From an uncultured Planctomycetaceae bacterium (GTDB lineage: Bacteria > Planctomycetota > Planctomycetia > Planctomycetales > Planctomycetaceae), in NCBI GenBank assembly GCA_963815195.1, contig CAWFGE010000011.1, forward strand, positions 51,756 through 115,755: a DNA stretch of 64,000 nucleotides. Reading direction: 5' to 3'. Both the position numbers and the translations under genes were made by a program. The notes under the pieces were generated by a model. It was not told the origin of the DNA. It searched no databases and saw only the letters and a program-made list of their open reading frames with translations. This document shows positions 28,653-63,453 of the stretch, piece after piece (the first letter of the stretch is position 1; every line of letters begins with the position of its first letter).

Positions 28653-29865
28653 ATGGTGAGCGTTCCGTATGGAACCCGAAAAGAGTTTTCCTGCGAGATC
28701 GATGCCTCGCGGATTATCGAAGTGGCTCCCAGCCCCCGGCCCCATCCGGATTTGGCGAGCCAGCTTCGGCAGGCGCTGGCGTGCCCGCTGGATTATCCGC
28801 CGCTCGCGCGGTCGGTGATTCCCGACGACCGCGTCGTTTTGGCCCTCGACCGCGAAACGCCCCAGGCGAAGGAACTGCTCGCCGGCGTCTGGGCCGACCT
28901 GGAAAAAGCCGGCGTCCGCCCCCAAGACGTGACCCTGCTCCAGCCCGCCCCTCGATCTGGATCGCCTTTTTTGGAGGCTGCCGAGATTCTGCCGCATCCG
29001 GAGATGATTTCCGTGGTGCATGCCCCGGCGTCCGAGGACGATTGCCGTTATTTGGCCTCCACGGTCGGCGGCGAGCGGATTTATCTGGCCAAGGAACTCC
29101 TGGAAGCCGAGGTCGTGATCACCATCGGCCCGATCGCGTTCGATGCGGTGATCGGCTACCGAGGCACGAACAGCGTGTTCTATCCCGGCCTGTCGTCGCC
29201 CGCCGCCAAAGTCAAAGCCGCGGGCCAAGGGCACCGGGAGCTCGGGCCCGAGAACGACCGCCCGCTCCGGCAGTTGATCGATGAAGTCGCCTGGCTGTTG
29301 GGCTCGCAGTTTTCCGTGCAGGTTGTGCCTTCGCTGTTCGGCGGCGCGGCCCATGTGCTGGCCGGGCAATCGGACGCCGTGCTCCGCCGGGGCAAGGAAC
29401 TCATCAATCAGCATTGGCTGGTCGAGTCTCGATTACCGGGCGGAGATCGTGGTCGTCGGCGTGGAAGAAGACGCCGCGGGCCACGGCTGGACGCAGATCG
29501 GATCGGCCCTCGCCGCCGCGCGGAGCCTGGTCTCCAAAGGCGGGCGGATCGTGGTGCTGTCGGACGTGAACGTGCCGCCCGGCGAAGGCCTCAAAATGCT
29601 GATGCGCTACGAAGACGCGACCGAAGGCCTGCGCCCGCTGAGGCAGGCGGCTCCCGAAGATTTGATTCCCGCGACCGAACTCGCCGAGGCCGCGGATTGG
29701 GCCGACGTGTACCTCTTAAGCCGGTTGGACAGCGACCTCGTGGAAGACCTGTTCATGGCCCCGTTGGAATCCGAAGCCGAGGTCAAACGCCTGTTGGGCC
29801 TCGATGAGCAGGTCCTGTTCCTCCCCTCCGCCCAACACCGCTTCGGCCGCATCCGCGAGCGGTGA
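28653..29865 (+). CDS. Lactate racemase (LarA)-like domain protein; frameshift near 29428
   Basis: ALACPLDYPPLARSVIPDDRVVLAL and YLASTVGGERIYL are typical of the planctomycete LarA-like family; the C-terminus is in ORF 29281..29865. Confidence 0.7.
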
Positions 29866-29898
29866 GAAACACCCGGCGAGGGAGAGCCGTAGAGTGGG
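29815..29898 (+). repeat. 84-bp perfect direct repeat, left copy (3' end of larA-like gene plus start of a GTAG REP)
   Basis: CTGTTCCTCCCCTCCG...CCGTAGAGTGGG is identical to 36368-36451. Confidence 0.95.
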
Positions 29899-29998
29899 CA
29901 CCAGTGGGCACTCTACTTGCTGCTGGAAAGCACCGGCAACAAGTTGCCAGTGGCACCCGAAAGACTCTTAACAATAACCCGGACTGACAGTGCCACCC

Positions 29999-31800
29999 CG
30001 CCGCGTTGATCGACCAGCCAGCCCTCATCGAACAGGTTGAGGAACGGCTTCCACACGTTGGGGTGGGCTTTCTCGGCTTCGTCCAAGAGGAACACCGCGT
30101 AGGGGTCGGCGTTGAGTTCGTTGACCAGCCGACCGCCTTGGTCGTGGCCCACGTAGCCCGGCGGCACGCCGATGATCCCCGACACCGTGTGCGGCTCGGT
30201 GAAGTTGCCCATCGAGTACACTTGTAATCGACCCGTGGCCGAGTACAACCGGGCCAGGGCCTTGGCCAGTTCCGTTTTGCCCACGCCCGTCATCCCGGCG
30301 AACAGCAGCACCGAGGCGGGGCGGTCCGGTTCGGTCAGGCCGGCTTTGATCAGCTTGAGTTCGGTGGCCACGACCTCGACGGCCTCCGCCTGACCCACCA
30401 CCGAAGCCTTGAGTGCCGCTTCGTAATCCGCCGAGCCGCCATCGCCGGAGAGCGTTTCGACCGGCACGCCCGTGAGTTCGGCGACCACCCGCACCACATC
30501 CTCGGCCCGCACCCGGTTCTCGTCCGCCGATGCTCTGAGTGCGGGCGAAGCTGACGTTCTCACAAGCCCGTCTCAGAATTTTTTCCGCCTTGGCCGGATG
30601 CCGTTCGCTGAGCACAAACGCCGAGGCCAGCGCCACCGTGCGTCTGGGCACATCGTCATCCAGTCGCACTTGATGCTCGCGTTCGAGTTCGTCTCGCTTC
30701 GCTTCCAGAAACGCCAGGCTCTCCTCATCGCTGGGCTCATCGATTTCGATGCGGGTGATGAGGTCCGAAAGCCCGGCATCGCCAGCCAGGAGGTCTTGAT
30801 ATTCCCAAGTCGAGAGACTGCCGATCAATTGCAATCCCGACCGCGTGAGCACCGCCCGCAGAAAGGCCAGGTTATCGGCGGAGCGTTTGAGGAGCGGACC
30901 CAAGCCATCCAGACACAGCACCAGATTCTCCCAATCCCCCACCTCACGGACGATTCGCTCCAACACCGCCCGCCCATCTTCGGGCGGCACACTCGAACAA
31001 TCCAACCGCAAAAACCGCTTGTCGGCCAGAAACGGATACCGCCCCTCCGCCGCCCGCCGCGCCAGTTCCCGAAGCACCACCGTCTTGCCCACCCCCTTAT
31101 CCCCGGTCACCACCACATGCTTCGCCTCCCCCCGAAACAGCGACCGAGCCATCTTCTCATACACATCCCCCTGGGCAAAACTCCGCTCCATCGCCGCCGG
31201 CAACCCACCCGACAAAGCCAAAAACGTCAAATCCTCCGCCCCCAATGCTTGCCGCATCACCGGCGAAAGCCGCTCCGTCCAATCATCCACCGAAGTGCGT
31301 TTCCTCCGCCTCATTGCCGGTTTCTTCTTCCCCCTGCTCAAACTCCACCTGAAACGGCAACTTCTCAAACACCTGCTTCAAGAAATGCGGCGCCTCCGCC
31401 AAAACCGCCGCCCAAAGATGCTGCGGTTCGATCTGTGATCTGCATCGTTCTCCGCAAACTCGAAGGCCGTCACTAACACCCGCTGCACATCCTCCGTCAG
31501 GAAGTTGCGTGATAGTTCTAACGGTTTCCGTGGTGTTTCCTCGGCTCCAACGACCTCCTTCAGTTTCGCCGTGAGTTCTTGAACTGCCTCAGCATTGTCA
31601 CCCTCACTCGGCTGATCGATCATTGAGAGCAGCAACGCGCTGAGGCCAATTTGCGCATGGCCTAATTGTTCGGCTTGGATCAACGACTTTTCGATAATGA
31701 GCCATGCCGTTTCGCCGAACAAATCTTCTGACAAGGCGACTGATCCACCAGGAAACAGCGTATCCGAAGGAATCTCGTTATTTACATCAACAGTGGACAT
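29999..31800 (-). pseudogene. ClpA/B/V-type AAA+ ATPase, 3'-truncated, with at least 3 frameshifts
   Basis: Clp-N repeat motifs (GHAQIGLSALLL; QIEPQHLWAAVL in a shifted frame), Walker A GDKGVGKT and GMTGVGKTELAK, and LLDEAEKAHP; similarity stops at DEGWLVDQRG. Confidence 0.85.
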
Positions 31801-31962
31801 ATTCGTATATTCCCGAAAGATAAGAGGATTTCATTCCCATATTGCTATCTAATGGTTTGTCGATGTCCCACCATGCTCGATTCATCCCCTTGTATTGTGC
31901 CATTTATCTCGCACAGCAACCTCCCCAAACACTGGCCGTCAACAGTAGCAATGATTTGACGT

Positions 31963-32781
31963 TCACAGGAAAATCAGATTCTCAGCCTTTAACGTGTCAA
32001 AAACAGCTTGGCGCTGATTATCAGAAACTTCCCAGAGCTTGACTCGCTCATCGATTTCCTTCAATGTTCCGCGTGAAGGGTCTGCCTTGATCCATTCCTC
32101 CAAACGCTTACCCTCCACATTACCATCGAGTTGATACGACGTCAGAAAATTCCACGGATAAACATCTCGAAGAATACCCTTCTTATAAACCTCGTTAGGT
32201 ATGGCGTTATATCCCCATCGCGAAATTCTGAGACCCTCAGCATCTCTCTCTTTTTCTATCTCCGGTGAAGGATCTGGAGAGCGATATTTATTCAATCCCA
32301 CTGCATACAAAACTGGCCCTAAACTGTGAGCACGAGCGTAACCAATCCCATAGCATGGCTGGAGCTTCTCGCAGATCGTATGTGCAAATTCAGTCAACAA
32401 TGTGTCTTCGAAATTCAAAAACGTCTTTCGAACTCCAAACGTGAAGTACGACTCCTCGCGAAGGTCTAAATCAGCCGTCGCCTCCCAATCTGAAACAGGT
32501 ATCTTACCACCAGGAGTCATACGATAAATCGATATTCCTTCGACATTACTTATGCCAGTACGTTGGAGCCTAGGATGGATTCGTTGAAATGAGCCTGGTC
32601 GTCCGGAAAAGCCCGTGCCGGTGACAGCAAGTTTGTCCGGCCCTAGTCCAAGTCTGGAAAAAAAATCAAGCAGAGCGTGATAAAATGATGTGACTGGCTT
32701 TGCACGCTTGCGCAATCCATAGAAAGCAAGCGCCACACACTCATCAGAAGCTTCATCAATCATGCTTTTATCCTTTCTCAA
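31963..32781 (-). CDS. Hypothetical protein, probable cognate immunity protein
   Basis: Starts 3 bp after the toxin stop; same low-GC composition; no recognisable enzyme motif. Confidence 0.6.
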   Translation of the reverse strand: MRKDKSMIDEASDECVALAFYGLRKRAKPVTSFYHALLDFFSRLGLGPDKLAVTGTGFSGRPGSFQRIHPRLQRTGISNVEGISIYRMTPGGKIPVSDWEATADLDLREESYFTFGVRKTFLNFEDTLLTEFAHTICEKLQPCYGIGYARAHSLGPVLYAVGLNKYRSPDPSPEIEKERDAEGLRISRWGYNAIPNEVYKKGILRDVYPWNFLTSYQLDGNVEGKRLEEWIKADPSRGTLKEIDERVKLWEVSDNQRQAVFDTLKAENLIFL

Positions 32782-32784
32782 ATT

Positions 32785-34421
32785 TCAAATTGGATCGCGG
32801 TCCAAGACCCGAATCTCACCCTGTTTGTCATCTGGCAATCGCTGCATTTCGCTAGATAATCTTGATCGAAGTTCTCGAGCTGTATCTCCTTCCGACAAAA
32901 CTTCCCAGGCATCAACTTTGCCATCACATCTAATGCCGATAATGTCTGGGCGGAAGCCTGAGGGATTTTCACGGCCTGTTGCGGTCCGCCAAGCCAAATC
33001 CATTGTCAAATACTGATACTTTCCAGTTTTGGCTTGTTCTTCCGCAATCCGCCGCACGGTTTCCGCATGTGGATTTAGTCCCGTGGTTTCGTCATCAGAT
33101 CCAGTTTCTTGAGCTTCTCCGTAAACAAAGACTGGGCCCTTAGAACTGTAGTATACTTGCGCACCAAATCCAGTTCGATAAACTATGTCAAAACCACTGT
33201 CGCATTCATTGTCCAATTCGCACTTTTCAGCGATCGCTTCTGCCAAAGCGTAGACGGCCTCCACAAGCGTTCGATACATGCGAGATTTTTCTTTGCCGAT
33301 TCCCTTTGTGAGTCGTATATTATCGTAGTCTCGTTCCGCATGTTCGACTGCATCCTTCTCACTCTGAACTTTCTTTTTGCATTTTGCGGACATCCCATCC
33401 CAATCCTTGGTCGGACTGGCCTTAATCCAGATCGTCCCGCCTTTATCAATCCAGACTGTGGCGAGTTGCTTCTTCGCACGAGCCGTTTTCGCAAAGACTT
33501 TATCATCGGATTTTATCCCAAACTTTGCCCCAACAGCTTTGACAACTCTCTCAATCGGTGAGAACACAGCTTCCACAAGCTTTTGCAGAAGTTCGTCTGC
33601 TTTTTTCTCTAGGCCGCCGAGAGCTTCGCTGATCTTTCCAGGTAAGTCAGCGATCTGCGCAATTTTCGCAATGAATTTGAAAATGGGAACCAATGTGTCC
33701 GAAAGCCCCTGTTCGACCTTTGTCGCGATGGTGCCAACCGCCTTACCGGTGACGACATCATCGACCGTTTCCACAAACTTATTCAGCAAGCATCTCAGGC
33801 CGGGACAACTTTCAAGGAAGCCGGCGATCACATCCAGAATCAAAAGAATCCAACCGGCTCCCGGAACGGCCTTGACCAACAGCTTCGTGACCAGTTTGGC
33901 GATGAAGCCCGGGAGGATGTCGGTAATAACGTTTGTGAACAGGGAGCCAATGTTTTCTTCCAACTTTTGTGGTAGCTGCTGCAAATACTCAAATGCCTTG
34001 TCGGCCCATGTCCCCAGAATATCCTTGATCCAATCAATACCGGCGTCAATCCCTTTATCGGCAAACTCTTGCAAAGCCCCTGCCGCTGACATGAAAAATC
34101 CGATAGCGCCCGGCAGGATCTGGTCAGCCTTGGAACGCACGTTTTCAAACGTCCAACCCAGAGTGTCGGCAAGCACCTTCACAAGCCCAAGGAAATTGAA
34201 TTTTGGATAAATGGCATTAACGAAGCCTTGAAAATCAATTTTATCCAGCTTCGTCCATTTCTTGAGGGCGTTTCCGAGTCTCTTGAAAAACTTATTTGGA
34301 TCCTTAAATCGCTCGAATCCCTGTCCTACGCCTTCGGCAAGGGTCTGAAAAGCCTTTTGGCTGCCGCCAAAAATCAAATCGAGCAGTTTCGATCCGGCAT
34401 TGGCACCATCTGTAAGTTTTT
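32785..34421 (-). CDS. 5'-truncated polymorphic toxin with C-terminal PD-(D/E)xK-like nuclease domain
   Basis: Helical core (TLGWTFENVRSK...VPGAGWI...KVEQGL...FIAK), WIKASP linker and C-terminal RPDIIG...VDAWEVLS; the frame stays open upstream into the REP at 34422 without a proper start. Confidence 0.7.
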
Positions 34422-34469
34422 GTAGGGCAGGCTCCCGCCTGCCTTTTTCCGTTATTTGGCAATCGTCAA
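34422..34469. repeat. Left half of a GTAG REP doublet split by IS1380 (right half at 36248-36290; partial tandem copy at 36292-36363)
   Basis: GTAGGGCAGGCTCCCGCCTGCC pairs with GGCAGGCAGGAGCCTGCCCTAC. Confidence 0.85.
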
Positions 34470-36247
34470 CCCGGATTATTCATCAGGTCCGTGCGTGGTG
34501 AGTATTTCCGTGGCGGAAAGTGCACAGGGTGGTTGGGGAGCGGAGGATGGGCGGACCGCCCCCTTTCCCCCTGGGGCCTGGCGATCGTTGGGTGAGTGAA
34601 GGAAAGAAACAGAAAGGCGGATGCCACGATGGCGAACTGCTCAGTCCCGAAGAACCAGTTGCTCATGGGCGTGACGTGGGAGAGGTGTGTAGGGCCGCGG
34701 GCGAGCTCCACGCGGACGTGGCCAGAGGTTGGCCAGACGCAGCGATCGGATGCGGGAAGACATCGCGGCCCAAAACGCGCTCACGCTTTCCTCAATGTAA
34801 ATCACGAGGCGGCGGGAGTGCTTCACGACCCGCGCTCCTGTCCGCAGCACCGACTGCTGGAAACGATGCAAGTCCCAGCAACCGCCCAACTCGTCCTCGA
34901 ACTCGATCCGCAGCATCGACGCCAGGTTGAACGCCAGCAGGCCCAACAGCAACGTCACTTCGTTCTCCGCAAACACCGATGACGAAAGACGGCAGCCAAT
35001 CACCGCGTTGAATTCGCCCAGCCGGTCCTCGAACGTGCCGCGCTTGCGGTAGTGCGACAACACCTCATCCGCCGAGCGTTGCTCCTCGGTCCAGTTTGTG
35101 ATCAGGAAGAAGTAACGCGGAAACAGAGCCAGTTGGCCCGTCTTCGCCTCCGGCTTGTCGACGATGACCAGAATCACCCGCTGCGGATGACGCCAGCCCT
35201 CGGCTTGGTACTTTCCGAGTTCGATCACGTCCTCATATCCCCCTTTGGGCGGCCGGCCCGCGGGACGTGTCAGATAGGGCGCGGCCATCTCTTCCAGCAC
35301 GTTGTTCTTCTTGATTCTCCCGCAAAAACGGATGTTTTCGTCGGTCAACTCATCCAACACCGGGCCGGCGATGAAACCCGCATCGATCCGGAGGTCGAAG
35401 CTCCACGCCAGTTGCCGGGCCTTGCCGACCACGTTGCGAATAAACCGCCGGATGCCATTGGCCGTATGCACGCTGCCTTGCCGCAGGATGGCATGAATGA
35501 AGCCGTTCCCCAGCCGCTGGCCTTCCCGCGCGCTATCGTAGTCGCCGCCGACCGAGAAACTAGCGACCAGCGGATGATAGACGGTCTCCTTGTAGTAACC
35601 GTTGTAGCGGGCCCCCGGCTGCTGGCCATAAACCTGCATCGGGAAACTGTCGATGTCGATGGTGGCGTAGCGGACGCGGCGGTCGCTGTCGCCGGTGCTT
35701 TTGATGTGCCGATGGATCCAGTCGAACAAGGCGCTCCGCACGGCCTCGAGATTCGTCTTGCAGTCGGCCAGCCAATCGATGAGCCGGGATTGGGTGGGTT
35801 GGCTGGCCAGGCGTTGGTTGAGCACTTCTTCGCCGGGCCGGTCCCAGGCGGCCATCTTCATGGCGGGATCATGGGCGAGCCGGTCGAGATCATCCTGATC
35901 GGACTCTCCCAGGGCCATGGCGTAGATTCTTTCCCGCAGCAGTTCGACGCCTTGATAGCGGACGCGGTCTTGCCGGCGAGGATCGATCAGTCGATCGGCA
36001 AGGGATTCGGTGAGTCCGAGCCGATGATCGAAGTCCCGCAGCAGAACGGCACCGGAGTGTGACGTGAGCCGCCCATCGACGGCCTTGACCTTGATGGAAC
36101 GATTGAAATCGGGCTCGAAAATGTTAGGCTGAGCTTCACCCATCGCGTGATTCCTCCGTATGGTGTTGGGATTGCATATAACACTTAAACGCAGAGGGTC
36201 ACGCGATGGTTCCTTCTTTTTTCAGCTTTTTTGGTGAATAATCCGGG
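34470..36247 (-). mobile_element. IS1380-family insertion sequence (1778 bp)
   Basis: 16-bp terminal IRs (CCCGGATTATTCATCA / TGGTGAATAATCCGGG, one mismatch) and a 5-bp GTCAA target duplication at 34465-34469 and 36248-36252. Confidence 0.95.
34641..36143 (-). CDS. IS1380 family DDE transposase
   Basis: LTSHSGAVLLR, ASQPTQSR, TIDIDS, YNGYY..YHPL, LRIDAGF and YRKRGTFEDRLGE motifs. Confidence 0.95.
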   Translation of the reverse strand: MGEAQPNIFEPDFNRSIKVKAVDGRLTSHSGAVLLRDFDHRLGLTESLADRLIDPRRQDRVRYQGVELLRERIYAMALGESDQDDLDRLAHDPAMKMAAWDRPGEEVLNQRLASQPTQSRLIDWLADCKTNLEAVRSALFDWIHRHIKSTGDSDRRVRYATIDIDSFPMQVYGQQPGARYNGYYKETVYHPLVASFSVGGDYDSAREGQRLGNGFIHAILRQGSVHTANGIRRFIRNVVGKARQLAWSFDLRIDAGFIAGPVLDELTDENIRFCGRIKKNNVLEEMAAPYLTRPAGRPPKGGYEDVIELGKYQAEGWRHPQRVILVIVDKPEAKTGQLALFPRYFFLITNWTEEQRSADEVLSHYRKRGTFEDRLGEFNAVIGCRLSSSVFAENEVTLLLGLLAFNLASMLRIEFEDELGGCWDLHRFQQSVLRTGARVVKHSRRLVIYIEESVSAFWAAMSSRIRSLRLANLWPRPRGARPRPYTPLPRHAHEQLVLRD

Positions 36248-36367
36248 GTCAATCAATAGAAAATAGAAGGCAGGCAGGAGCCTGCCCTACTCGCCTGCCT
36301 TTTTCCGTTATTTGGCAATCGTCAATCAATAGAAAATAGAAGGCAGGCAGGAGCCTGCCCTACTCGA

Positions 36368-36451
36368 CTGTTCCTCCCCTCCGCCCAACACCGCTTCGGC
36401 CGCATCCGCGAGCGGTGAGAAACACCCGGCGAGGGAGAGCCGTAGAGTGGG
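36368..36451 (+). repeat. 84-bp perfect direct repeat, right copy; runs into a GTAG REP doublet at 36442-36504
   Basis: Identical to 29815-29898; overlaps GTAGAGTGGGGATCGCCCACCA...TGGTGGGCGATGCCCACCCTAC. Confidence 0.95.
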
Positions 36452-36463
36452 GATCGCCCACCA

Positions 36464-36793
36464 TTATTTGGTCGAGAACCATTGGTGGGCGATGCCCACC
36501 CTACTTACCTTGCAAATGGACGCGACCGCGTTGCCCGCGAAGCCTGCGAGGATGCAGGCCAGCCAGAGATTCGAGAGGCCGCCGCCGGTGAGGAGGTCGG
36601 TGTAAGCGCGGGTCAAGCCGCAACCCGGGCAGGCGTGGAATGTCGCCTGGACCGGGCAAGACCAGCCGGCCAGCGGAACCAGAGCGCGGAGCCCGGCGTA
36701 CATCGTCCAGAGAACGAACGGCAGATTGTAGCCTATGACAATCCGCCACGCGCGCCGCTTCGGGCTAACGCTTGAGCTCGTTTCCCTCGGCAT
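36464..36793 (-). CDS. DUF2752-like small membrane protein
   Basis: CP...CPGCGLTRA motif; the C-terminus reads through a REP. Confidence 0.75.
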   Translation of the reverse strand: MPRETSSSVSPKRRAWRIVIGYNLPFVLWTMYAGLRALVPLAGWSCPVQATFHACPGCGLTRAYTDLLTGGGLSNLWLACILAGFAGNAVASICKVSRVGIAHQWFSTK

Positions 36794-36980
36794 CCTTCAT
36801 TTTTCCCATGAGGATCATGATGAAGTCGATCAGGGCCCAAACTCCGCAGCCGCCCAGCGTGAGAAGCTTCAAGACGCCGAGGCCCGTGTAGCCGAGGTAA
36901 AACCGGTCCACGCCCAATCCGCCGAGAAAGAAGGACAACAATGCCGTCGTCGTAAAGTCCCGTTGCTTCAGTTCATTCAT
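36765..36980 (-). CDS. TM2 domain-containing protein
   Basis: LLSFFLGGLGVDRFYLG...LTLGGCGVWALID is the TM2 signature. Confidence 0.9.
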   Translation of the reverse strand: MNELKQRDFTTTALLSFFLGGLGVDRFYLGYTGLGVLKLLTLGGCGVWALIDFIMILMGKMKDAEGNELKR

Positions 36981-37154
36981 CGTGAGAGGCTCCTGTTGCG
37001 AGAGGGGAAAGCAAGAAAGGCGGCCGTCGAAAGGTTCTTCATCAAGAACGGAAGGCATTCTGCCCCAAGCGTTACTGATTGTCAATTGTCCCGTGCTGTG
37101 CAGCTTTTGAGTTTCAACAGCCGACACCCCCCGGCGTGCAAGTTCTGCGTATCT

Positions 37155-38789
37155 TCACCGCCTGGGCCGGGTGAGCCATTCTTCCAGGGTGGGCAGGTTG
37201 GCTTGGATCAGGCTTTTGCCGGCTTTCCAGAATTGCTTGGCCAGCCGCTCCACGCGGTGGGCTTTGAGTTCCTTATGCAAGGTGCGGAGCAGCGAGCACG
37301 CGCGGGCGTTGTCCAACAGGGGCGTCATCGCGGGCAGAAGGGACTCGTCCACGCCGAATTCCCGATTCCGGGCCACGTCCGCGCACACCGGAACCACGCC
37401 GACGAGCGCGCTGGCAAACTGCTCGGCGTTGTAGCGGACGGCCTCGCGAATGTTGACCTCCTTCGGCCGGCTGCCGGACTGCCAATCGTAAGGCGGCGAC
37501 CATTCCATCACCGGGCTGAGCAAATCGATGTGCGTCAACACGCCCAGCACCGGCACGGGCTTGAGCTCTTTACGCACCTCGAACCAGGCCCTGAGCGTTT
37601 CGAGCATTTCCCGGTCCGGCTCGCGGGCGGGGCTGTTGGCGTTCATCACGAACAGCACCAAATCCGCGTCGCGGAGGGCCTGCTTGGTTTCTTCGAGTTG
37701 CTTGATTGTCGCGCCGTCCGCGGCGTAGCCCACCGTGTCGAGCAAGGTCAGATGGTCGTCGGCTTCCTCCCAGTCCAGCCGATACCGCGCGACCTCGCTG
37801 GTCGCCGGGAGAATATCCGTCTTGGCCTGTTGATCGCCCAGGATCGCATTGATGAGACTCGATTTCCCGGCTTTCGTTTGCCCGACCAAAGCGATCGTGA
37901 CTTCGGTGCGTTGTTCCTCGTCCGGTGCCTGTTGTCCGTTGTCGGGTGGGTTTGTTTTTTCGTCGGGCTTTGGAGCGGTCTCCGTGACCGGGGGGCTGAC
38001 ACCCCCCGCTCGCCTTTCCCGGGCTTCCATCTTCTTGAGCGTTTCGCGGAAGCGGTCGGCGCCGCCGGCGAGCCGGCCGCTGTTGAGTTCGATGGCATAA
38101 TAACCCACGCGTTCGATGAACATGATCGTGAACCACGCGAGCACGTTGGACTGGATGTCGCGCGTGACGGGGTTGACGACAAAATGCGACGCCGCGTACC
38201 GGGCGACCACGGTCTGCGGAGCCAGAATGGCGGAGATCGGCCAATAGAACTTCGAGAGCGTGTTCGACCACTTGGGGATTTTCGCGAGATGCCGATAGTG
38301 GTTGACGGTCATGAGATGCGACGCGGGCACATAGTCGTCGACAAGTTCCGCCAGATCCTCAAACACCAGTTCCAAAGCCGCGAGGATTTCGGGAATGGTG
38401 AGTTGGCTGACCGGGTCCTTGGCTTTGGGATGGTACACGTGGGCGATCTCCAGGGACAACTGCGTCGCGGTGTCCACGTAGAATTGGATCCGCGTCAAGT
38501 CGTCCGGCGGGATTTGCCCCAGGGATTTCGAGCGTTCCAGGACGAGCTTCCACGCGGCCTGGTCGCGGGGCGTCCAATGCATGGGAATCTCGCTGCTGAC
38601 GTCGGGCGGGGCGAAATACTTCTTCCACCAGCGGAGCAAAAAAAACGCGAGCCCCCAGCACACCGGCCAGGGCACCCATAGCCAGGTGTACCAGCCGTAC
38701 TTCCAGAGCGCCCAAGTGCCCACGGCCATATAAGCCAAGATCGGCAACAACAACAGCACAAGGACGACGAGCGAACGCCAGCGGCTCAT
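37155..38789 (-). CDS. Membrane-anchored P-loop GTPase (MMR_HSR1-like)
   Basis: Two N-terminal TM segments, G1 GQTKAGKSS, G3 DTVG and G4-like THID. Confidence 0.85.
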   Translation of the reverse strand: MSRWRSLVVLVLLLLPILAYMAVGTWALWKYGWYTWLWVPWPVCWGLAFFLLRWWKKYFAPPDVSSEIPMHWTPRDQAAWKLVLERSKSLGQIPPDDLTRIQFYVDTATQLSLEIAHVYHPKAKDPVSQLTIPEILAALELVFEDLAELVDDYVPASHLMTVNHYRHLAKIPKWSNTLSKFYWPISAILAPQTVVARYAASHFVVNPVTRDIQSNVLAWFTIMFIERVGYYAIELNSGRLAGGADRFRETLKKMEARERRAGGVSPPVTETAPKPDEKTNPPDNGQQAPDEEQRTEVTIALVGQTKAGKSSLINAILGDQQAKTDILPATSEVARYRLDWEEADDHLTLLDTVGYAADGATIKQLEETKQALRDADLVLFVMNANSPAREPDREMLETLRAWFEVRKELKPVPVLGVLTHIDLLSPVMEWSPPYDWQSGSRPKEVNIREAVRYNAEQFASALVGVVPVCADVARNREFGVDESLLPAMTPLLDNARACSLLRTLHKELKAHRVERLAKQFWKAGKSLIQANLPTLEEWLTRPRR

Positions 38790-39991
38790 GGAGTGTCGCC
38801 TCCCTCGTGGTGCTTCTTCCAAAGCTCGCGCGCTGCGGCGGTTTGCTCCCGCATGACTTGTTGCAACTCCTCCCGCGTCGGGGCGTGGCCCATCAATTTT
38901 TCCCCATAGTACCAGCAGCAGCCCCGCCCCAGGGCATAAGTCGCCCCAAACGCGAGCGCTGCGTTCGCGGCCAGGCCGACGCCGGGCACGATCTTTAACG
39001 TCTCGCGAATGACCTGTCGCAGCGCCAATCGGCTGCTGACGGCCCCGGCCATTTGAAAGAACTGCTTCGAATCAAAATGCTGCCCGTAAAGGGCCGCGAT
39101 CCGGCGGATCAATTCGGACTGCACACCCATCACCACGGGGATGTCGATCCAAGGCACGGGCACCGCCGCCGCCGACGCCGCCATCGTCGCCGCGCTCAAC
39201 ACGTAAGGCATCGCCCGCTCTTCGTGCAAATCCTTGAGGGAATCCATCACGTCGGTCATCGTCAAAAACGTCTGCCGATATGCATCGGGCAAGCGGCGGA
39301 CGAGCGCGGCCTTCAAGCGGTCGCCGCCGAAGTTCGGCTCGGCAAAGCCTTCCTCCGGTTTGGTCAGATCGACGGGCACGATCTCGTCCGCCAGTCCCGA
39401 AAACCGCCGGGATTGCTCCTGCAAACTGCGGCGGAGATCGTCGGGCACGGCGTCGATGTCCGTGAAGCCGTCGGTTTCCGCGACATCGAACGGATCGGGC
39501 TTCGGATGCTGCTGTTGGGGATACAAATCGTGGAGGCAAGTCAGGACGAGAACCACCGGCCGCGTGGGTTTGGCTTTGCGGATTTTTTTGAGCGGTCCCA
39601 CGACGGAATCGAGCGCATGGTCGGCAATCCGGGCGGTGACGATCATCAAGTGCGCGGATTGATCGCTGGCTTCGATGTCGTCGGCGGGATCGTACCGGCT
39701 TTCGCCGATGCCCCGCGTGTCCAGAAATTCCAGGATGGGGCTCTCTGCGCTGGGAAAGGCATACCGGCGGGAGAACCGCGTCTCGGGGCGAAAGCCCGTG
39801 CCGATCTCGGCGTCCTCGGCCCCGGTGAGGAACCGGATCACCGACGTCTTCCCGCTGCCGGTTTTGCCGAACAGCCAAAACACGGGCACGGGGCAGCGTT
39901 CGAGCAGCTTGCCCCGTTCGCGTTCAAAATGTTCGGACTGGAATCTGCGCAATAGCCGGTCTTGAAACCAGCCGCGCACCGAATCAAACAT
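38786..39991 (-). CDS. GTPase with C-terminal YcjF/DUF697-like domain
   Basis: G1 GKTGSGKTS and G3 DTRG; AAAVPVPWID...IAALYG...KIVPGVG. Confidence 0.85.
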   Translation of the reverse strand: MFDSVRGWFQDRLLRRFQSEHFERERGKLLERCPVPVFWLFGKTGSGKTSVIRFLTGAEDAEIGTGFRPETRFSRRYAFPSAESPILEFLDTRGIGESRYDPADDIEASDQSAHLMIVTARIADHALDSVVGPLKKIRKAKPTRPVVLVLTCLHDLYPQQQHPKPDPFDVAETDGFTDIDAVPDDLRRSLQEQSRRFSGLADEIVPVDLTKPEEGFAEPNFGGDRLKAALVRRLPDAYRQTFLTMTDVMDSLKDLHEERAMPYVLSAATMAASAAAVPVPWIDIPVVMGVQSELIRRIAALYGQHFDSKQFFQMAGAVSSRLALRQVIRETLKIVPGVGLAANAALAFGATYALGRGCCWYYGEKLMGHAPTREELQQVMREQTAAARELWKKHHEGGDTP

Positions 39992-40408
39992 GGCGGGACT
40001 TTATCCTAAAGGAAAGCTCGGCGAGGGAGCCGCTGTCATCGTTATTCGTTCTTGCCTTCTCAATCTTATCGTTTCACCAGGCGAGCCAGAAGCCCTTCTC
40101 GTGAGCGGCCGGGCGCTGGCCGCCGGTTTTGGGGATCGCAAGACACCCATAGGAACGTGAAGAAAATAACTTCAACATCGGGACAAAAAGGCGAGCAGAC
40201 CAACCTGCGGTCGGTGCCCGCGTAAGCCCCCTGGTTATGTCGAGTCGTTCAAATCTTAGATTATTTTCTTGGCGATCCAGAAAATCACCGGCGGCTCGCG
40301 TCCCGCCGCTCAAGGATTATTCCCCAATGATTTGGCAAACGCGATCGAAATTGCCAAGATGGAGACGGTATAGCGTTCCGATTCTCGTATCAAGAAGACA
40401 GATCTGCG

Positions 40409-41243
40409 ATGTTGCGAAAGAACCTTGGGCCGTGGTCGGCGATGCTTGCGGGACTCCTCTTGGCTTTGGCTGTTTCGCCGCTCCGCGCACAGATGCAATA
40501 TCCGCTCGCGGTCGCGGGGACCGAGAAGGGGCCGATCTATGTCGCCGACCGCAAGCTGCCCGGGATTTGGAAAATCACCGACGGCAAAGCGGAAGCGTTT
40601 TTTCAGGCCTCGAAAAAATTCCGCACCCCGCTGAACGCGGTCAGGTGCCTGGCGTTCGACAAGGACGGGAAACTGCTCGCGGGGGACTCGGCCACGCGGG
40701 AGGTTTACCGCTTCGACGACAAAGCCCAACCGCAGCCTTTGACCGCAGGCAAGATTGGCATTCCCATGTCGATCGCCGTGAACGGACAAGGCGAACTCTT
40801 CGTGGCCGACTTGGAAACCCAGCGGATCTGGAAGGTCCCCGCCAAGGGCGGCGAACCGGAAGAGTTCGCCGTGCTCGCGGGGGTCCGCGGGTTGGCGTTC
40901 GATTCCGAAGGGCAACCTGATCGCCGTCACCAATCTCTCCGATCCCGTCAAAAAGATCTCGCCCGAAGGCAAAATCGAAGTCCTGGTCAAAGGCAGCCCG
41001 TTTGAGTTTCCGCACCACGTCGCGGTGGGCGAGAACGACGAACTCTACATCGCCGACAACTACGCCGGGTGCCTCTGGAAAGTCCCGCCCGGCGAACAGC
41101 CGGCAAAATTCGCCCAAGGCAAACCGCTCCAAAAACCGGTGGGCGTGACCCGCATCGGCAAGACTCTTTATGTCGCCGATCCGCACGCCCAGCAGGTGTT
41201 CTCCGTCGATGCGGAAGGCAAAGTGACCCCGCTGGTCAAATGA
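40409..41243 (+). CDS. Secreted NHL/SMP-30-like beta-propeller protein; frameshift near 40911
   Basis: Signal peptide and repeated P.xIAV..G.LYVAD units continuing to 41243. Confidence 0.8.
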
Positions 41244-41293
41244 AATTGGTCCCCGAAGGATCTCCAAGAACAACGGACAAAGGACCAAAGACG

Positions 41294-42744
41294 ATGCTCT
41301 CTCTGTTTCGGCCAAAATGCCCGCTCGATCCCAGCGAGAAGACGTGGATGGAATCGCGCGTGTCCTGGCTGTTGGGGCATTTGGGGTTCGAGCGGCTCCA
41401 GCAGATGGAAACGATTTTGCCCACGGGCGAATTTTTCCCGCTGCCCTACCACGGCGAGCCGGAGCAGGCTCAAAAGGTGTTCGAGCAAGTCTGCCGCTAT
41501 ATGCAGGCCGACCCGGGCAACTATCGCTTGAATGTCTTCGACGATGACACCGACCCGCGCAAGCTGCCGCACATGGAAAAGTGGGTCAGTTGGAAAAATG
41601 CGACGGCGTTCCCGTTTTACGAAGGGGCGGTGTACGAGCCGAACGAAAACCCGGGCGAACCGCATCTCGCCACGCTGCACATTCATCAGTCGATGGCGCG
41701 GGATTTGGAACTGGTGATCGCGCTGTTCAGCCGGGACATCAGCCAATCGCGGCTGTCGGCGGTGCCGAATCTGGAGATGGATCAAACCGAATATCAGCAC
41801 ACGCTGGAACTGCTGCCGCTGTTTTACGGGCTGGGCATTTTCGGGGCGAACGCGGTGATGCGGGAGCGGGCGGAGAACCTGCTCGGCTGGCATTATTGGT
41901 CGATGGTTCCGCAAGGGGCCTTGCCCGCGAGATACATCGGCTATGCCTTGGCTCTTTTATCGTGGCTCAGGCAGGAACCTTTGCCGGCCTGGCGGTCGTA
42001 CTTGCGGAGAGACGCCGAGGTCACGATGCAAGCGGGCCTCAAATATCTGGAGAAGACGGGCGATACAATCCTCGATCGCGAGCCGTCGGCGAAACCTTAT
42101 GACAGGCGTTCGCCCAGCCAATGGCTTGATGACCTCAAGACGGGCACACCGAGCCGGCGGATTGCCGCCTTGTGGGCGATCCAGTCGCACCCGGCCACCG
42201 TGCAGCCCGGCGAGTCGATCCATTTGATGACCGAAAACCTCTCGCATGCGAACGCCGTGGTGCGGGCCTCGGCGGCGGCGGCTTTGGACGCGATCGGAGA
42301 CCCTGCCGCGGACGCCGTGCCCGCTTTGCTGGTTGCCGCGCTCGAAGACCGCCGGGGGACGGTGCGAACGGTGGCGGCCTTGGCTCTCGGCAAAATGTCC
42401 TCGCGCAGGAGGAGATCATCCCCGAGCTTCTGCCGCTCTTAAAGGACCGCAATCTCAACGTGGCGAACGCGGCGGCGTGGTCCTTGGGGCAGTTCGGCCG
42501 CCGGGCGGAAGCCGCCGGCCCCTCGCTGGTCTGGCTGTTGCGGAAAGGAATTCTGCACTGCGAGGAATCGACCTTGAACGACATCCTCGATGCGCTCCGG
42601 TTCGTCACCGATCGACCGGACGCCGTGATTCGCGAAACCCTCGCCGAGCGCGACGCGGAAACCTGCGAGCGGGCGGTCAACTTGCTCAAAGAGCGCCAGA
42701 TCGACGCCCAGTCGGAGCAGACTTCAGGCCAGGGGACCGATTAA
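41294..42744 (+). CDS. HEAT-repeat protein; frameshift near 42397
   Basis: VRASAAAALDAIG...AVPAL and NVANAAAWSLGQFG HEAT units after an uncharacterised N-terminal domain. Confidence 0.75.
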
Positions 42745-42874
42745 GCCACCGTGCGCGGTTCCGCGTTCTAGATTTGCTTGTGCATCTTGAACCGATCCTG
42801 TTCGGCGGGGGACTCATTTCGTAGAATCGGTGCAGTCAATCCTTTGCGAGGAAAATGGAACGGTCGAGAGTACG

Positions 42875-43879: not shown

Positions 43880-44002
43880 AACGCGATTGTGGAGCGAAAC
43901 GGCCTGCCTGCGGAATGGTTTCGTGGAACGCCGGTCCCCTCTGCCGTACAATAGTTTAGGCTCCTGGTAAAACCGCAACCTCCATCACCCGAAGGCCGGC
44001 TT

Positions 44003-45079: not shown

Positions 45080-45092
45080 ACCTTCCGCTTCG

Positions 45093-46605: not shown

Positions 46606-46625
46606 CTGAACAGGTTTTAGAAATT

Positions 46626-55978: not shown

Positions 55979-56518
55979 CGCCAGTCCCCGAAAAGTCACC
56001 GTGGTTCTCCCTAACCCTACAATCTGTGAATTCGCCAAACTTTGTATTCATCCTGAATTGCCAAGTCTGGCTCGACTGGCGATGGAATTTACAGGGGGTC
56101 AAAAGATGTGTCAACGGGGAAGGTTTCCGTTGGGGATGCGCTTTGAGCAAACGGCCAAAATCGGTCGCGAAATGGCCGTAAACTACTCCCCAATTCACGG
56201 AAAAGCCGGTAGAACCGCGCCCCTATATGTTCCACAGCTTCCATAGTCCCCGCAGCCGTTAGTTCATGCGCGAGTTTTTGCGTTTTTGCCGCGTTTCTGT
56301 GAGAAATGCTGTCCGGACGCCCTATGGCCGCCTTCGGAAGTTAGGTGCGGCCGAGCCGCGTTCGCTGCCGGGCACGCGTCCTCCGCATCGGGACATCATT
56401 GCGGATGGGGAAACCGGCTCTTATACTCTGCTCATAATGTAAGTCCCGCTGTCCCCGCTTGAAACACAAACCAACCCATCCCTCCTCGCTTGGCTTCTCC
56501 CCGATAAAGGAGTTCTCG

Positions 56519-57789
56519 ATGCTTCGTTCAATGACACGATTCGTCTGCCTGGTGTGGCTTGTCTGCCCCAGTCTTTCCTGGGCCGCCGATAAGGCCCAGA
56601 GCGATTGGCCCGGTTGGCGCGGGCCGAACCGCGACGGGATTTCTCTGGAAAAGGGCCTGCTCGACACCTGGCCCGAAGGCGGCCCGGAGCTGCTCTGGCG
56701 TGTGGACAAGACTTTGGGCAAAGGCTTTTCCAGCGTGGCGATGGCGGACGGGCGGATCTTCACGATCGGCAAACGCGGCCGCGAAGCGGAGTTGATTGCT
56801 TTGGACGAGAACGGCGGCAAGGAACTCTGGTCGGCCCCCGTGGGCGGCGGCGATCCCAACTGCACGCCCACCGTGGACGACGGCCTCGTGTATGCCCTCG
56901 GCCGCGAAGGCGATCTCGTCTGCTGCGAAGCGGCCACAGGGAAAGAAGTCTGGCGGAAGAGCTTTCGGCAGGACTTCGGCGGCAAGATGATGTCCGGCTG
57001 GGGCTACAGCGAATCGCCGCTGATCGACGGCGAGCATTTGATCTGCACGCCCGGGCGCAGGACGCCATCATGGCAGCCCTCGACAAGAAAACCGGCAAAG
57101 TGATCTGGAAAACCGCGATGCCCGAGGACGTCGGCAACCGCGGCAAGGACGGGGCCGCTTATTCCTCCGTCGTCATCAGCAACGCCGGCGGCGTCAAACA
57201 GTACGTGCAACTCACCGGCCGCGGCGTGATCTCGGCCGATGCCAAGACCGGCCAACTGCTCTGGGGCTATAACAAAATCGCCAACGGCACCGCGAACATC
57301 CCCACGCCGATCGTGGACGGCGATTCTGTGTTCTGCTCCACGGGCTACGGCACCGGGGCGGCGTTACTGCAAATCACCAAGAACCGCGGAAAGCTCGAGG
57401 CCCGCGAAGTCTATTTCCTCAGTGGAAAAGATTTTCAAAACCATCACGGCGGGATGATCCTGATCGACGGCTACATCTACTGCGGCCGCGGACACAACTC
57501 GGGCTTTCCCGTCTGCATCAACATGAAAACCGGAAAGGAAGCCTGGAACGGCGGACGCGGACCCGGCGGCGGATCCGCGGCGGTCGTGTATGCCGACGGC
57601 AACCTTTACTTCCGCTACGAGAATGGCGTGATGGCCCTCATCGAAGCCACGCCCAAAAAGTACAACCTCAAAGGGCAGTTCCAGATCGACTCCAACAACG
57701 GCCGAAGCTGGCCGCACCCGGTCATCCACGAAGGCAAACTCTACCTCCGCGATCAGGGCACGTTGTTGTGCTACGACATCAAAAAGTAA
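56519..57789 (+). CDS. PQQ-binding-like beta-propeller protein; frameshift near 57055
   Basis: DWPGWRGPNRDG, WGYSESPLID and SWPHPVIHEGKLYLRDQ motifs. Confidence 0.9.
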
Positions 57790-61190: not shown

Positions 61191-61865
61191 CTACGGTTCC
61201 ACGCGGGTTAAAAAGTACCAGGTTCCGAGCGAAAAACCGACAATGCCGAGCAGCGGGCAGATCATGGAATAGATCGCACCGGCATTCTCTCCCAGCGCGG
61301 GAAGCTCCAGGGCAAATGCTCCGAAATTCAAGCCCAGCCAGATCAGCAAGGGCGAAACGAGGCCGCCGGCCACGGCGAATGTCGGGCTCGATTGGAACGC
61401 CGAGATGCCCCAGCTCACGCCGTAGATCATTAAATTGGAGAGGGCGAGGTAGGGAAGGATTTCGCCCTCGTCGCGAAATTCCATCGAGTCCCGGAAAACG
61501 ATGCGGTGCAGACACCAGAACACGCCGAGATTCACGCCCCAAATCACCGCCGTCGCGGAAACGGACAAGCTGATCTTGCTAATAAACCGGCGCATCCGGG
61601 ACACCGGCAGATACGCCATGAACTCCGCCGAGCGATCCGCCCGCTCCCCCGCGATCGCATTGCCGGCCAGAAGCGCCGCCGTCAGTTGGGAGAGAATCAA
61701 GCTATACCAGCTCGCCGCGGCCATTTCACCAGCATGAGCCAAAACCCGCCGATGTGTCCACAAGTCCCCGATCAAGGCGAACAAATAGGGCAAAAGCAAA
61801 AGGACGATTCCCGCAATCACGATCAACCGGTTGAGGCGGTATTCTCGCCAGAGAAGCCATTTCAT
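61191..61865 (-). CDS. ABC transporter permease, paralog 2
   Basis: Multi-TM protein; MKWLLWREYR and AGERADRSAEFMAYLPVSR motifs. Confidence 0.85.
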   Translation of the reverse strand: MKWLLWREYRLNRLIVIAGIVLLLLPYLFALIGDLWTHRRVLAHAGEMAAASWYSLILSQLTAALLAGNAIAGERADRSAEFMAYLPVSRMRRFISKISLSVSATAVIWGVNLGVFWCLHRIVFRDSMEFRDEGEILPYLALSNLMIYGVSWGISAFQSSPTFAVAGGLVSPLLIWLGLNFGAFALELPALGENAGAIYSMICPLLGIVGFSLGTWYFLTRVEP

Positions 61866-61898
61866 GCTTTGCCCTTTCGTCCGCTGATGATGTCCATT

Positions 61899-62540
61899 TT
61901 ATGCTTCCACTTGATGCAAATAATGCCAGGTCCCGAACGCGAATCCCGCGATGCCGATCGGGGTGCAGATGCTCGGGTAAATGGTTTCAAAATTCTTTTC
62001 CAGCAACGCCAACTGGAACACGTAACCTCCATAAAACAGGCCCATGAAAATCAAAATGGGAGCGACAACTCCGCCGGCGACGGCGTACGTGGGACTGGAT
62101 TGAATCGCTGAGATGCCCCAGGCAACGCCATACATTGCAAGCCCCGTCATGGCGACATTCGTCAGGAACAGAGGAGTGCCCCGAGAAGCAAGCCTGCAAA
62201 CCCAGAGAATCAAAAGGTTCGTCCCCCAAATTGAGACGACGATGATAAACGCCAGACTCAACTTGCTGATGAACCGCCGAAGCCGGGACACAGGCAGATA
62301 GGCCATAAATTCGGCCGAGCGATCCGACCGTTCCCCAGCCATCGCGTTCCCTGCCAACAGAACGAACGTCACTGGGGAAAGAAGGAGGCTGAATTTCGCC
62401 GCCGATGTGAAGATTCCTCTGAGATGATGCGAGATTCCTCGATCCGCGATCAGCAGCAAATAGGGAAACACCAATAGCACGGCCCCAATGCCCAGAAGCA
62501 GCCGGTTCCGGCGGTATTCTCTCCAGAGGAGCCATTTCAT
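61899..62540 (-). CDS. ABC transporter permease, paralog 1
   Basis: Multi-TM protein; MKWLLWREYR and AGERSDRSAEFMAYLPVSR motifs. Confidence 0.85.
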   Translation of the reverse strand: MKWLLWREYRRNRLLLGIGAVLLVFPYLLLIADRGISHHLRGIFTSAAKFSLLLSPVTFVLLAGNAMAGERSDRSAEFMAYLPVSRLRRFISKLSLAFIIVVSIWGTNLLILWVCRLASRGTPLFLTNVAMTGLAMYGVAWGISAIQSSPTYAVAGGVVAPILIFMGLFYGGYVFQLALLEKNFETIYPSICTPIGIAGFAFGTWHYLHQVEA

Positions 62541-63453
62541 GGCGGTGCCCTTTCGGCCTTTGACAAAATCCTTGAAAAGATCTTCGAGGCCAATGTCGAT
62601 GACCTCCGCGTGTTCGACGCCGGTTTGCGGCGCGAAGTTGTTCCAGCATCTCCGGTTGGAAGTCCGTCACGGTAATCAGCCACTCCCGGCCTTGCAGTCG
62701 CTGCCAGATGATGGATTCCGGCTTTTTGTCAGGCGGTTTGCCTTCGGTGAGTGTGATGCGGATTCGCTTGGTCGTCGCGAGCAGGTCTTCGATGTTTTTA
62801 TGGATCAAGAGCCGGCCGCCGTAGAGAATGCCCACGGTATCCGCCAGCCGCTGCACATCATCGAGCGAATGCGTCGAGAACACGACCGTCTGCCCGCGTT
62901 CGCAAATCGTCCGCAGCACGCCGTCCAAAAATTCCTCGCGGGCCAAGGGATCGAGCCCGGCCATCGGCTCATCGAGCAGCAAAACCTCCGGCTCGTGCGA
63001 GACGGCGAGCACCAGCGAGAGCTTGACGAGCATCCCCCGCGACAGGTGCTTGACTTTTTTTTCGAGGCTCAGTTCGAAGAGAGCCGTCAGCTCCCGGCAG
63101 GTTTCTTCGTTCCATTTGTCGTAAAGAGACCTGCAAAAGCCCAGGGCTTCGCGAACCCGCATCCAGCGGTCGATGTAATGCCCATCCGGGACGTAGCCCA
63201 CGCGCTGTTTGACCGTCAAAGGCTCGGCGAATACGTCCAGGCCCAGCATCGTCGCGGTGCCTTTGGTCGGGCGCAGGAGGCCCATCAGCATTTTGATCGT
63301 GGTCGTCTTGCCCGCTCCGTTCGGCCCCAGCAGCCCGAACGTGCTGCCCCGCTTCACGGTGAGCGAAAGGTCGTCGACCGCCGTCTCGCGGCCGAATTGC
63401 TTGGTGAGACCGGAAAGCCTGATGGCGGCATCGTCGTCGGCGAGGGTTGTCAT
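62537..63453 (-). CDS. ABC transporter ATP-binding protein; frameshift near 62622
   Basis: GPNGAGKTT, LSRGM and LLLDEP motifs; tail IGLEDLFKDFVKG lies in a shifted frame. Confidence 0.9.

Follow-up and report, generated by a model that had tools for sequence, protein, structure and literature searches.

Strand joins at fixed dinucleotides beside REP hairpins as a probable origin of mosaic inserts and target duplications in a planctomycete genome

We analysed a 64-kb stretch of DNA from an uncultured Planctomycetaceae bacterium (the window, G000:C11:51756-115755, from the 8.87-Mb, 25-contig assembly G000), in which a larA-like gene is followed by a long insert and then by a second copy of its own 3′ end. 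The insert is a mosaic of gene pieces with joints at a fixed CT or CG just outside the hairpins of repetitive extragenic palindromes (REPs). We consider it probable that such regions originate from strand joins made in trans by REP-associated tyrosine transposases (RAYTs), combined with replicative duplication of the DNA between two cuts. The observations behind this reading are the positions of the joints, the duplications, empty sites at other loci, the RAYT genes and the types of REP. A sequence-only reading of the window had proposed a trans-acting, integrase-independent and REP-linked process at three places where a gene end recurs downstream. Such a process is supported by REP ends at duplication edges, fixed junction dinucleotides and intact RAYT genes in trans; its extension to all three places as one age series is not.

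Results

Anatomy of the insert behind the larA-like gene

The larA-like gene (Lar_N; 28494-29865, + strand, stop codon at 29863-29865) has a frameshift near 29420-29450, probably an assembly indel. Its end repeat, reported as perfect in the sequence-only reading, is real: positions 29815-29898 and 36368-36451, both on the + strand and hereafter called X, are identical at 84/84 nucleotides with 6469 bp between them, and no third copy occurs in the genome. The left X starts with CT, carries the last 17 larA codons and consists of 74 unique nt followed by the initial 10 nt of a REP of the GTAG type. The right X overlaps a resident GTAG REP doublet forming a hairpin (REPIN), E1 (36436-36510, + strand; AG-N4-GTAG ... 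CTAC-N4-CT; single-stranded DNA hairpin z = -7.5).

From left to right the order is X, a GTAG REP, half of a GTGC/GTGG element, a Clp-like gene, a RAYT start, two low-GC open reading frames (ORFs), a second REPIN (E2) with an IS1380-family element, X and E1. The GTAG REP is a collapsed double-foot copy (29883-29921, + strand; AG-N4-GTAG ... CTAC-N3-CT), and its CT at 29920-29921 is the tentative junction to half of a composite GTGC/GTGG REPIN (29920-30003, - strand). The outer end of this half is joined at CG (30002-30003) to the Clp ATPase-like gene (30002-31800, - strand), which lies in three frames and is 3′-truncated at the joint; an uninterrupted homologue on contig C15 of G000 continues with different sequence past the CG point. 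Homologues of about 90% are found at C15:323171, C15:542959 and C20:287880, and in an array of the congener G001. The RAYT start is a GTGG-type remnant (31845-31936, - strand) with the upstream region and the first nine codons, matching the region ahead of the RAYT fragment C20:245838-246003.

Both low-GC ORFs are on the - strand. The first (31963-32781) encodes 272 amino acids, belongs to no Pfam or NCBIfam family and has 10 homologues at 30-43%; its Atlas feature score of 0.96 to clusters with 18-22% TsiV members is an immunity-like lead only. The second (32785-34416) has no family match and may, from its position, be toxin-like. Its frame is open as far as the AG/CT junction of the REPIN, as in a 5′-truncated gene, and no longer homologue of 32785-34377 was found. 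E2 (34415-36369, + strand; AG-N5-GTAG ... CTAC-N4-CT) contains a 73-bp tandem extra unit and joins the right X at its CT (36368-36369). A REPIN on C20, which interrupts a RAYT gene at CT, matches the E2 segment 36292-36370 at 100% identity. The IS1380-family element (34470-36247, - strand; 13-bp inverted repeats, 5-bp target duplication GTCAA, about 14 near-full-length copies elsewhere) lies inside the E2 spacer and entered it later.

Junction dinucleotides at REP ends

The REP families of G000 have 25-148 ends each and occur as many copies in inverted doublets, with a GT[AG]G foot ahead of the hairpin (GTGC in one family) and hairpin z values of -4 to -7.5. In two families CG sits exactly 3 nt outside GGGTGGCA, at 36/41 and 27/27 ends, and AG sits 4 nt outside GTAG in 36/41 ends and 4-5 nt outside in 37/54. 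The signal is weaker in two other families (CG within 7 nt in 116/148; AG within 7 nt in 19/25 and 21/27), and no outer-dinucleotide signal was found in two.

We then compared REP ends with uninterrupted homologues of their outer flanks. After composite ends, high-copy flanks and homologies stopping >8 nt out had been left aside, 45/340 ends were usable, two junctions of the window among them. At GTAG ends the homologue shares the AG and homology stops 0-2 nt later in 23/27 cases (shifted control 32/162; p 7e-11), and at GTGG ends it shares the CG in 16/18 (shifted control 21/108; p 2e-8). For G000 on its own the counts are 11/14 GTAG and 15/16 GTGG. An AG read on one strand is a CT on the complementary one, and the GTAG junctions fit the published RAYT site: C|T located 5′ or 3′ of a REP is where TnpA-REP of Escherichia coli and Stenotrophomonas cuts in vitro, according to the available text of PMC8266576 and PMC3333891.

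Long duplications and empty sites

REP ends carry long flanking direct repeats at 6-10 times the control rate, an enrichment beside REPs that the sequence-only reading had suggested testing for. An outer flank recurs within 15 kb at 20/228 GTGG ends versus 14/1656 controls (p 6e-11) and at 10/97 GTAG ends versus 7/435 controls (p 2e-4), and paired REP ends show duplication in 12/438 cases versus 0 in five shifted sets. In total, 82 pairs of low-copy direct repeats (>=30 bp, no more than 30 kb apart) occur in G000; tRNA att sites, paralogues and REP-linked cases are among them.

We curated 26 REP-linked duplications, which are 22-288 bp long and enclose inserts of 73-6479 bp. They do not always start or end on the dinucleotide; the outer end of the duplicated target falls on it in several cases. 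Comparisons used three congeners (G001, G002 and G003; 15% divergence). Empty sites in relatives do exist: four loci other than larA are empty and single-copy in G001, namely C13:563467 (77 bp), C19:110612 (48 bp), C20:328658 (33 bp, CT...AG) and C12:900.4 kb (about 62-64 bp).

Anchoring at gene 3′ ends, a central element of the earlier proposal, is not supported. Gene 3′ ends, as called by our own rough gene caller, lie in 8/26 curated duplications versus 109/462 same-length windows beside REP feet (p = 0.48). Gene ends are thus copied because REPs sit behind genes.

RAYT genes

Intact RAYT genes of both REP types are present in the genome, as the sequence-only reading had suggested checking. 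The GTAG-type gene (C12:908730-909293, with the match at C12:908835-909284) scores 164 bits on NF047646 (cut-off 80), and in G001 its orthologue reaches E 8e-38 against TnpA-REP of E. coli (4ER8). The GTGC/GTGG-type RAYT P0001, on C11, scores 99.7 bits on the same model. The closest named relatives of the RAYT point to a planctomycete as the source of the genome. In the alignment to 4ER8 the HLH/HVH motif and the Tyr are retained. GTGC/GTGG-type RAYTs of G000 lie at C11:44484, C13:63157 and C13:936724, and at least six RAYT fragments were also found. NF047646 has 13 matches in G000 and 13 in G001; Pfam Y1_Tnp found 6 places and missed the intact GTAG-type gene.

REPs flank RAYT genes of the matching type. 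Relatives of P0001 are flanked on both sides by a GTGC/GTGG-type REP at 26/40 close loci versus 0/36 distant ones, and GTAG-type motifs occur at 27/30 of the top NF047646 loci. Between congeners the REPtron itself aligns and its flanks do not, so that RAYT genes are non-syntenic. A half RAYT gene on C20 (326 bp) is 99.4% identical to the C12 gene; the REPIN that truncates it at CT is the one also present in the window. In G001, RAYT genes are duplicated on 838-bp and 675-bp repeats. With 13 matches per genome, non-syntenic flanks and this half copy, the RAYTs do not behave as single-copy, immobile genes at a fixed locus. Nor do they resemble IS200/IS605 elements: long duplications with empty sites are found, and the proteins lie below the NF033573 cut-off and, for the two main types, above that of NF047646. 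Three further Y1 genes of other classes are located at C13:617065-617625, C19:251583-252059 and C23:603341-604603, and the REP ends studied here are absent within 500 bp of them.

Low-GC cargo and arrays

Unique DNA of <=47% GC lies within 1.2 kb of 14/31, 15/23, 10/26 and 10/23 REP loci in four families (49/103 together), versus 15/561 control-repeat loci and 4.4% of random places. This adjacency is weaker in three REP families (13/59, 7/21 and 3/22) and absent in two (1/74 and 1/59). Inserts of up to 6.5 kb are low-GC mosaic DNA that includes RAYT genes and halves of them.

A comparable structure is a 9.5-kb array ahead of carB in G001 (G001:C25:154755-164221; L049:1-9221, L053:14755-20000). 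It contains four 238-bp GTGG copies, 99.6-100% identical and each joined at CG, at least four copies of a GTAG REPIN with their joints at AG/CT, and a CG-truncated fragment of the Clp-like gene that also lies behind larA. Its cargo comprises SMI1, ankyrin, small genes of no known family and an ISAzo13-type transposase; older repeats are ~94% identical and younger ones 100%.

Cargo function was assessed on 69 ORFs hand-picked from 131. Most have no family, and 12/69 match SMI1/SUKH, Imm or PT-HINT families, two of the SMI1 matches being below the cut-off. Ten of these 12 matches come from two G001 loci and only 2/35 G000 ORFs match; therefore, a bias towards immunity genes in G000 is not supported. 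The row of PT-HINT genes in L155 is possibly no more than a standard cassette array of polymorphic toxins. Clusters of at least three REP loci number 24, versus a mean of 2.0 and a maximum of 7 in resampled controls, a count that is too high, since a composite element enters it under more than one family. Many REP clusters lie at breaks in synteny, among them 6/9 mapped clusters of G001 and 3/15 of G000.

Classical insertion sequences also land in REP arrays, as with IS1380 in the E2 spacer and a 1.47-kb element beside CCACCC REP ends (G000 C13:60009-61480, C15:411 kb).

The Uma2 and permease sites

At the Uma2 site a repeat is present, as the sequence-only reading had stated: 44584-44696 and 45093-45206 differ by 8 substitutions and 1 indel in 114 columns (93% identity over the first 100 nt), with 396 bp between them. 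The Uma2 gene (44003-44696, + strand) includes the first copy. The cassette behind it (44697-45206, + strand) begins with a gene tail (44697-44760), the complete gene being present in G003; a 103-aa ORF without a family assignment (44768-45079) and the second copy of the Uma2 end follow. The repeat exceeds 30 bp, and the cassette contains no mobile gene. REPs had been placed at two of the three regions; the larA insert is indeed REP-bounded at both ends, but no REP was found at the Uma2 junctions. The only GTAG REP there, a collapsed copy (46626-46650, + strand), lies 1.4 kb past the second Uma2-end copy, at the far end of a variable slot between Uma2 and a DUF7133 gene.

The unit of gene tail, 103-aa ORF and end copy is also present in G001 and G003 at 91-92% identity, and G002 has one Uma2 end but does not provide a clean empty site, since a different small gene occupies the slot. 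Copies of the Uma2 end group by genome (93% within G000, 87% within G003, 80-85% between), which fits homology anchoring. The cassette is an older, probably homology-anchored unit. The site fits insertion with long target duplication, as described in the available text of PMC2853133, or homology-driven cassette exchange; it could conceivably also be an eroded RAYT event. In the four congeners the slot (44684-46688; L036, L038, L039) contains different small genes, and in G001 the Uma2 gene lies on another contig with the end copy still in the slot.

The third place had been read as a diverged ABC ATPase end. The 43-nt match (61824-61866 / 62499-62541, 88%) is instead the start of two tandem ABC-2 permease genes (61191-61865 and 61899-62540, together 61191-62540, - strand), and the DNA between is the full paralogue itself. 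The paralogues are 70% alike over 312 nt, the proteins 52% identical over 225 columns, and the similarity reaches only ~15 nt of upstream DNA (ribosome-binding site and ATGA overlap). At least two permease copies each are present in G001, G002 and G003, and the only REP motif match at the site is GTAGGG within a permease gene. We thus rule out a cargo insertion here in favour of a tandem duplication common to all four genomes, outside the REP process.

REPs and RAYTs beyond the genus

The 16-nt GTGG end is present in 81/251 genomes of the family, and RAYTs above the cut-off in 118/151 genomes. In other genera, duplications were found at 5/88 REP ends versus 5/410 controls (p = 0.019; flanks mostly 1.5 kb), three of them clean. 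Among the clean cases is G057, with a 253-bp duplication joined at CG. In G142, a single contig, a REPtron lies between two 51-bp gene 3′-end copies bounded by CT (L344:7152-8931), and this locus contains a 221-bp tandem array of RAYT 3′ end and REP joined at CT. A Joint Genome Institute (JGI) metagenome contig (L354:351-518) carries the same GTGG REPIN with CG at both ends; the right end lies inside a gene, Uma2-like by eye, and a flanking duplication is not visible. Viral contigs were considered as REP carriers and rejected: there were 48 single motif matches, one of them with further REP motifs, and we treat these as chance.

Assembly, integrase search and other features of the window

Frameshifts split several core genes of the G000 assembly; therefore, single indels are not trusted. 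In the window, glutamate synthase (16557-21229) appears as three ORFs, a PQQ-repeat gene (56459-57789) as two, and the frame of the ABC ATPase (61987-63453) continues into the permease, all probably assembly indel errors. Public runs of a near-identical strain, with short contigs at ~3x, were compared with the window (X1-X4 with 28000-47000, X1 with 36200-45700); a joint in X1 that leads backwards from 36508 to 36340 probably stems from a different REP locus.

As stated in the sequence-only reading, the window has no tyrosine or serine recombinase and no tRNA: PF00589 and PF00239 have zero matches across the whole of contig C11 (36 and 23 elsewhere in the genome), and none of the 64 kb encodes a tRNA. 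An integrase-bearing island, an integron or a rAID-1 array is accordingly not indicated here, attC sites not having been searched for.

AT-rich AAATCCGAAA-type repeats, of which G000 has 49 loci, are located at 12121-12194, 24114-24184, 25356-25535 and 27552-27624; this family has no link to low-GC DNA and served as a control. A ~220-bp imperfect palindrome (73%) lies at 8508-8725 between moaE and an FAD-oxidase gene, and a similar one in G002 (L044:2795-3020). Elsewhere in the genome, nested 1.0-1.5 kb repeats with a common 43-bp end and no REP (G000:C15:318-322 kb; L030:2014-6415) resemble a decayed array of one element.

Discussion

Strand joins and the duplication of targets

Cutting and strand transfer by RAYTs at the CT and CG dinucleotides, followed by replicative copying, is a likely source of the observed joints. 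According to this model, a RAYT acting on a single-stranded REP would cut C|T (GTAG) or CG (GTGG/GTGC) 3-5 nt beyond the repeat, and the cut REP end would be linked to a matching dinucleotide on another stretch of single-stranded DNA. Two staggered joins in one locus would lead to a target duplication of 20-290 bp, and two joins to different DNA would give capture or rearrangement. Because cutting would need a nearby REP, new joins would accumulate beside old REPs and arrays would grow. At the larA site, a nick at the CT located 74 nt upstream of E1 may have primed a new copy of X, and the 3′ end of the cargo (...CTAC-N4-C) may have been joined to the displaced strand, with IS1380 arriving later. 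The larA and G142 loci (CT...CT) fit the published nick-extend-rejoin model, as given in the legend to Figure 7B of PMC3333891, with a donor strand added, and C20:328658 (CT...AG) fits joins on opposite strands. The available text of PMC8266576 and PMC3333891 already describes strand transfer from a 3′ C and rolling-circle amplification, and raises the possibility that flanking genes are captured.

Several observations weigh against this model. At the larA site itself, the 10 nt of REP at the left junction end on neither CT nor AG, and the listed contig pieces of the public runs bridge neither junction at ~3x, with 29268-29901 not covered. An empty larA site is found neither in G001-G003, where the downstream DNA is wholly different, nor in JGI metagenomes (0 matches). 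Duplication is also far from constant. Among 13 filled/empty pairs, 3 have a long duplication, 1 is ambiguous, 1 has an overlap of <=9 bp and 8 have none; in a 1.2-Mb sample of G001, 1/35 ends are duplicated versus 3/249 controls; and a clean flanking target duplication is present at 1/20 RAYT loci fetched (G142). Duplication is one outcome of joining, not the rule. The counts of recurring outer flanks include tandem repeats of which the REP is itself a part, along with a small number of matches of 19 bp, and the exclusion of homologies stopping >8 nt out removed 7/34 and 8/29 ends in an earlier run of the junction test. One GTGG family in which duplications are numerous has low-GC neighbours at just 1/74 loci. 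In addition, the published guide rule predicts CC and not CG for a GTGG foot; therefore, the assignment of CG joins to P0001 rests on co-location. CT...AG (C20) and CT...CT (G142) polarities both occur and do not point to a single route.

Alternative origins

If RAYTs only place REPINs, duplications and cargo arrays might follow from host recombination or break repair between them (unequal sister exchange, tandem duplication), with REPs as passive crossover points. Many arrays do have near-identical REPINs between cassettes, with the best distant copy equally similar (98-100%), most REP clusters checked coincide with synteny breaks, and tandem REPIN-plus-flank repeats are already reported from Pseudomonas in the available text of PMC3116915. 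However, a crossover between REPINs leaves the unique DNA flanking a single REPIN uncopied, whereas X-E-X arrangements with a single-copy empty site are seen on C13, C19 and C20, and several duplicated targets have their outer end on the dinucleotide as well; we regard this origin as unlikely. A single homology-anchored system that targets the 3′ ends of genes, the three sites being of successive ages, would account for the regenerated gene end at two of the three sites, for the G142 REPtron behind a duplicated gene end and for the clustering of Uma2-end copies by genome. Without 3′-end enrichment, with tandem paralogy shared by four genomes at the ABC site, and with Uma2 junctions that carry no REP in a unit present in two other species, it appears improbable.

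Movement of the REPINs as miniature inverted-repeat transposable elements by a DDE transposase of the IS1549/IS1634/IS1630 type is a further candidate. IS1549 and IS1634 are of types that make long variable direct repeats. The same is reported for IS1630 in the available text of PMC2853133. GTGG elements end in a perfect 13-bp terminal inverted repeat, the CT...AG polarity resembles 3′-end transfer on both strands, and the genome is rich in DDE elements. Yet REP-type ends are found on 0/22 of the IS-sized segments listed, all of them multi-copy, where transposase genes were found within such ends they are RAYTs, and the GTAG junction is the published RAYT site, which makes a DDE origin very improbable. 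Finally, the perfect 84-bp repeat could be a long-read assembly artefact, given the many frameshifts (larA, glutamate synthase, the PQQ gene) and the want of a listed independent contig across the junctions. Against this, the larA junction follows the genome-wide CT rule, other copies of the pattern are diverged by 2-10%, have empty orthologues and occur in other assemblies, and the same REPIN is joined into a gene in the JGI contig, with CG at both ends. We hold an artefact to be the least probable of these explanations.

Relation to known systems

Strand joining by RAYTs as proposed for larA-type sites belongs to the RAYT/REPIN systems, except that the RAYTs here are not single-copy and immobile. 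The E. coli system of REPtron and bacterial interspersed mosaic elements (TnpA-REP, RAYT group 2, subclass 2.2; 4ER8; PMC3333891, PMC8266576), is similar in its HUH/Y1 family, inverted GTAG-footed hairpins and C|T junctions; moreover, tandem REPIN-plus-flank units fit its rolling-circle model, and capture of flanking genes was proposed there. However, the available text on that system mentions neither a target duplication nor foreign cargo of several kb and states 'no evidence of tnpAREP mobility', whereas G000 has duplications of 22-288 bp for which empty sites exist, inserts as long as 6.5 kb, several non-syntenic RAYT genes or halves, and the CG class of joints. REPINs of Pseudomonas fluorescens SBW25 (PMC3116915, PMC3337134, PMC5581495, 10.1101/2021.07.10.451892) are likewise non-autonomous inverted doublets, with tandem clusters that include flanks and with REPINs beside REPINs. 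In the available text of these papers SBW25 RAYTs are single-copy, vertically inherited and not self-copying, and that of the 2021 preprint does not contain 'cargo', whereas RAYT-bearing DNA of G000 is duplicated.

Insertion of restriction-modification genes with long target duplication (PMC2853133) shares the long variable direct repeats, sometimes over gene 3′ ends, and the lack of an integrase, and is the best match for the Uma2 site; the available text identifies no repeat, enzyme or junction rule, whereas larA-type sites have all three. The rAID-1 arrays of Bacteroidales (10.1101/471110, available text) are similar low-GC cassette arrays with a repeated intergenic sequence and immunity genes (here SMI1 and Imm22/26/50, mostly in G001), but they need a 5′ XerD-like recombinase and co-oriented genes; here the recombinase is lacking and the cargo is often cut mid-gene and mostly has no family. 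TIRtrons with their TIRYT genes (PMC3733652; mostly subclass 2.1, PMC6006769) also have Y1 genes between terminal inverted repeats; as far as the available text shows, these are GGGGWSAS repeats, unlike the GT[AG]G- or GTGC-footed hairpins here, and 'duplication' does not appear in that of PMC3733652. In the literature searched, which included few subscription papers, RAYTs are not described as making long target duplications or cargo arrays, and nothing was found on such duplications having empty sites, on kilobase-sized foreign mosaics, on CG junctions or on copied RAYT genes.

Implications

The available text of PMC8266576 and PMC3333891 states that the in vivo spread of REPs and the role of RAYTs for the cell are open. 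The G000 genome offers dozens of in vivo footprints with a readable rule, composed of dinucleotide, foot distance, duplication length and empty sites. These footprints yield sharp predictions for two named enzymes, and they contradict the view that RAYT-bearing DNA is neither copied nor moved.

A further possibility, which we put forward only tentatively and hold to be rather doubtful, is that planctomycete RAYTs are active gene-capture enzymes. They might splice foreign single-stranded DNA at CT or CG into REPINs while copying the REPIN or its neighbourhood, and might thereby build integrase-free banks of orphan immunity genes and toxin tips, move RAYT genes and drive genome shuffling, with the carB array of G001 as the type case. 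CRISPR adaptation likewise copies its repeat, and such capture would differ from it by gene-sized spacers. If this were true, it would constitute an integrase-free route of gene acquisition and of genome rearrangement in planctomycetes, and repeats that are supposedly tame would move genes.

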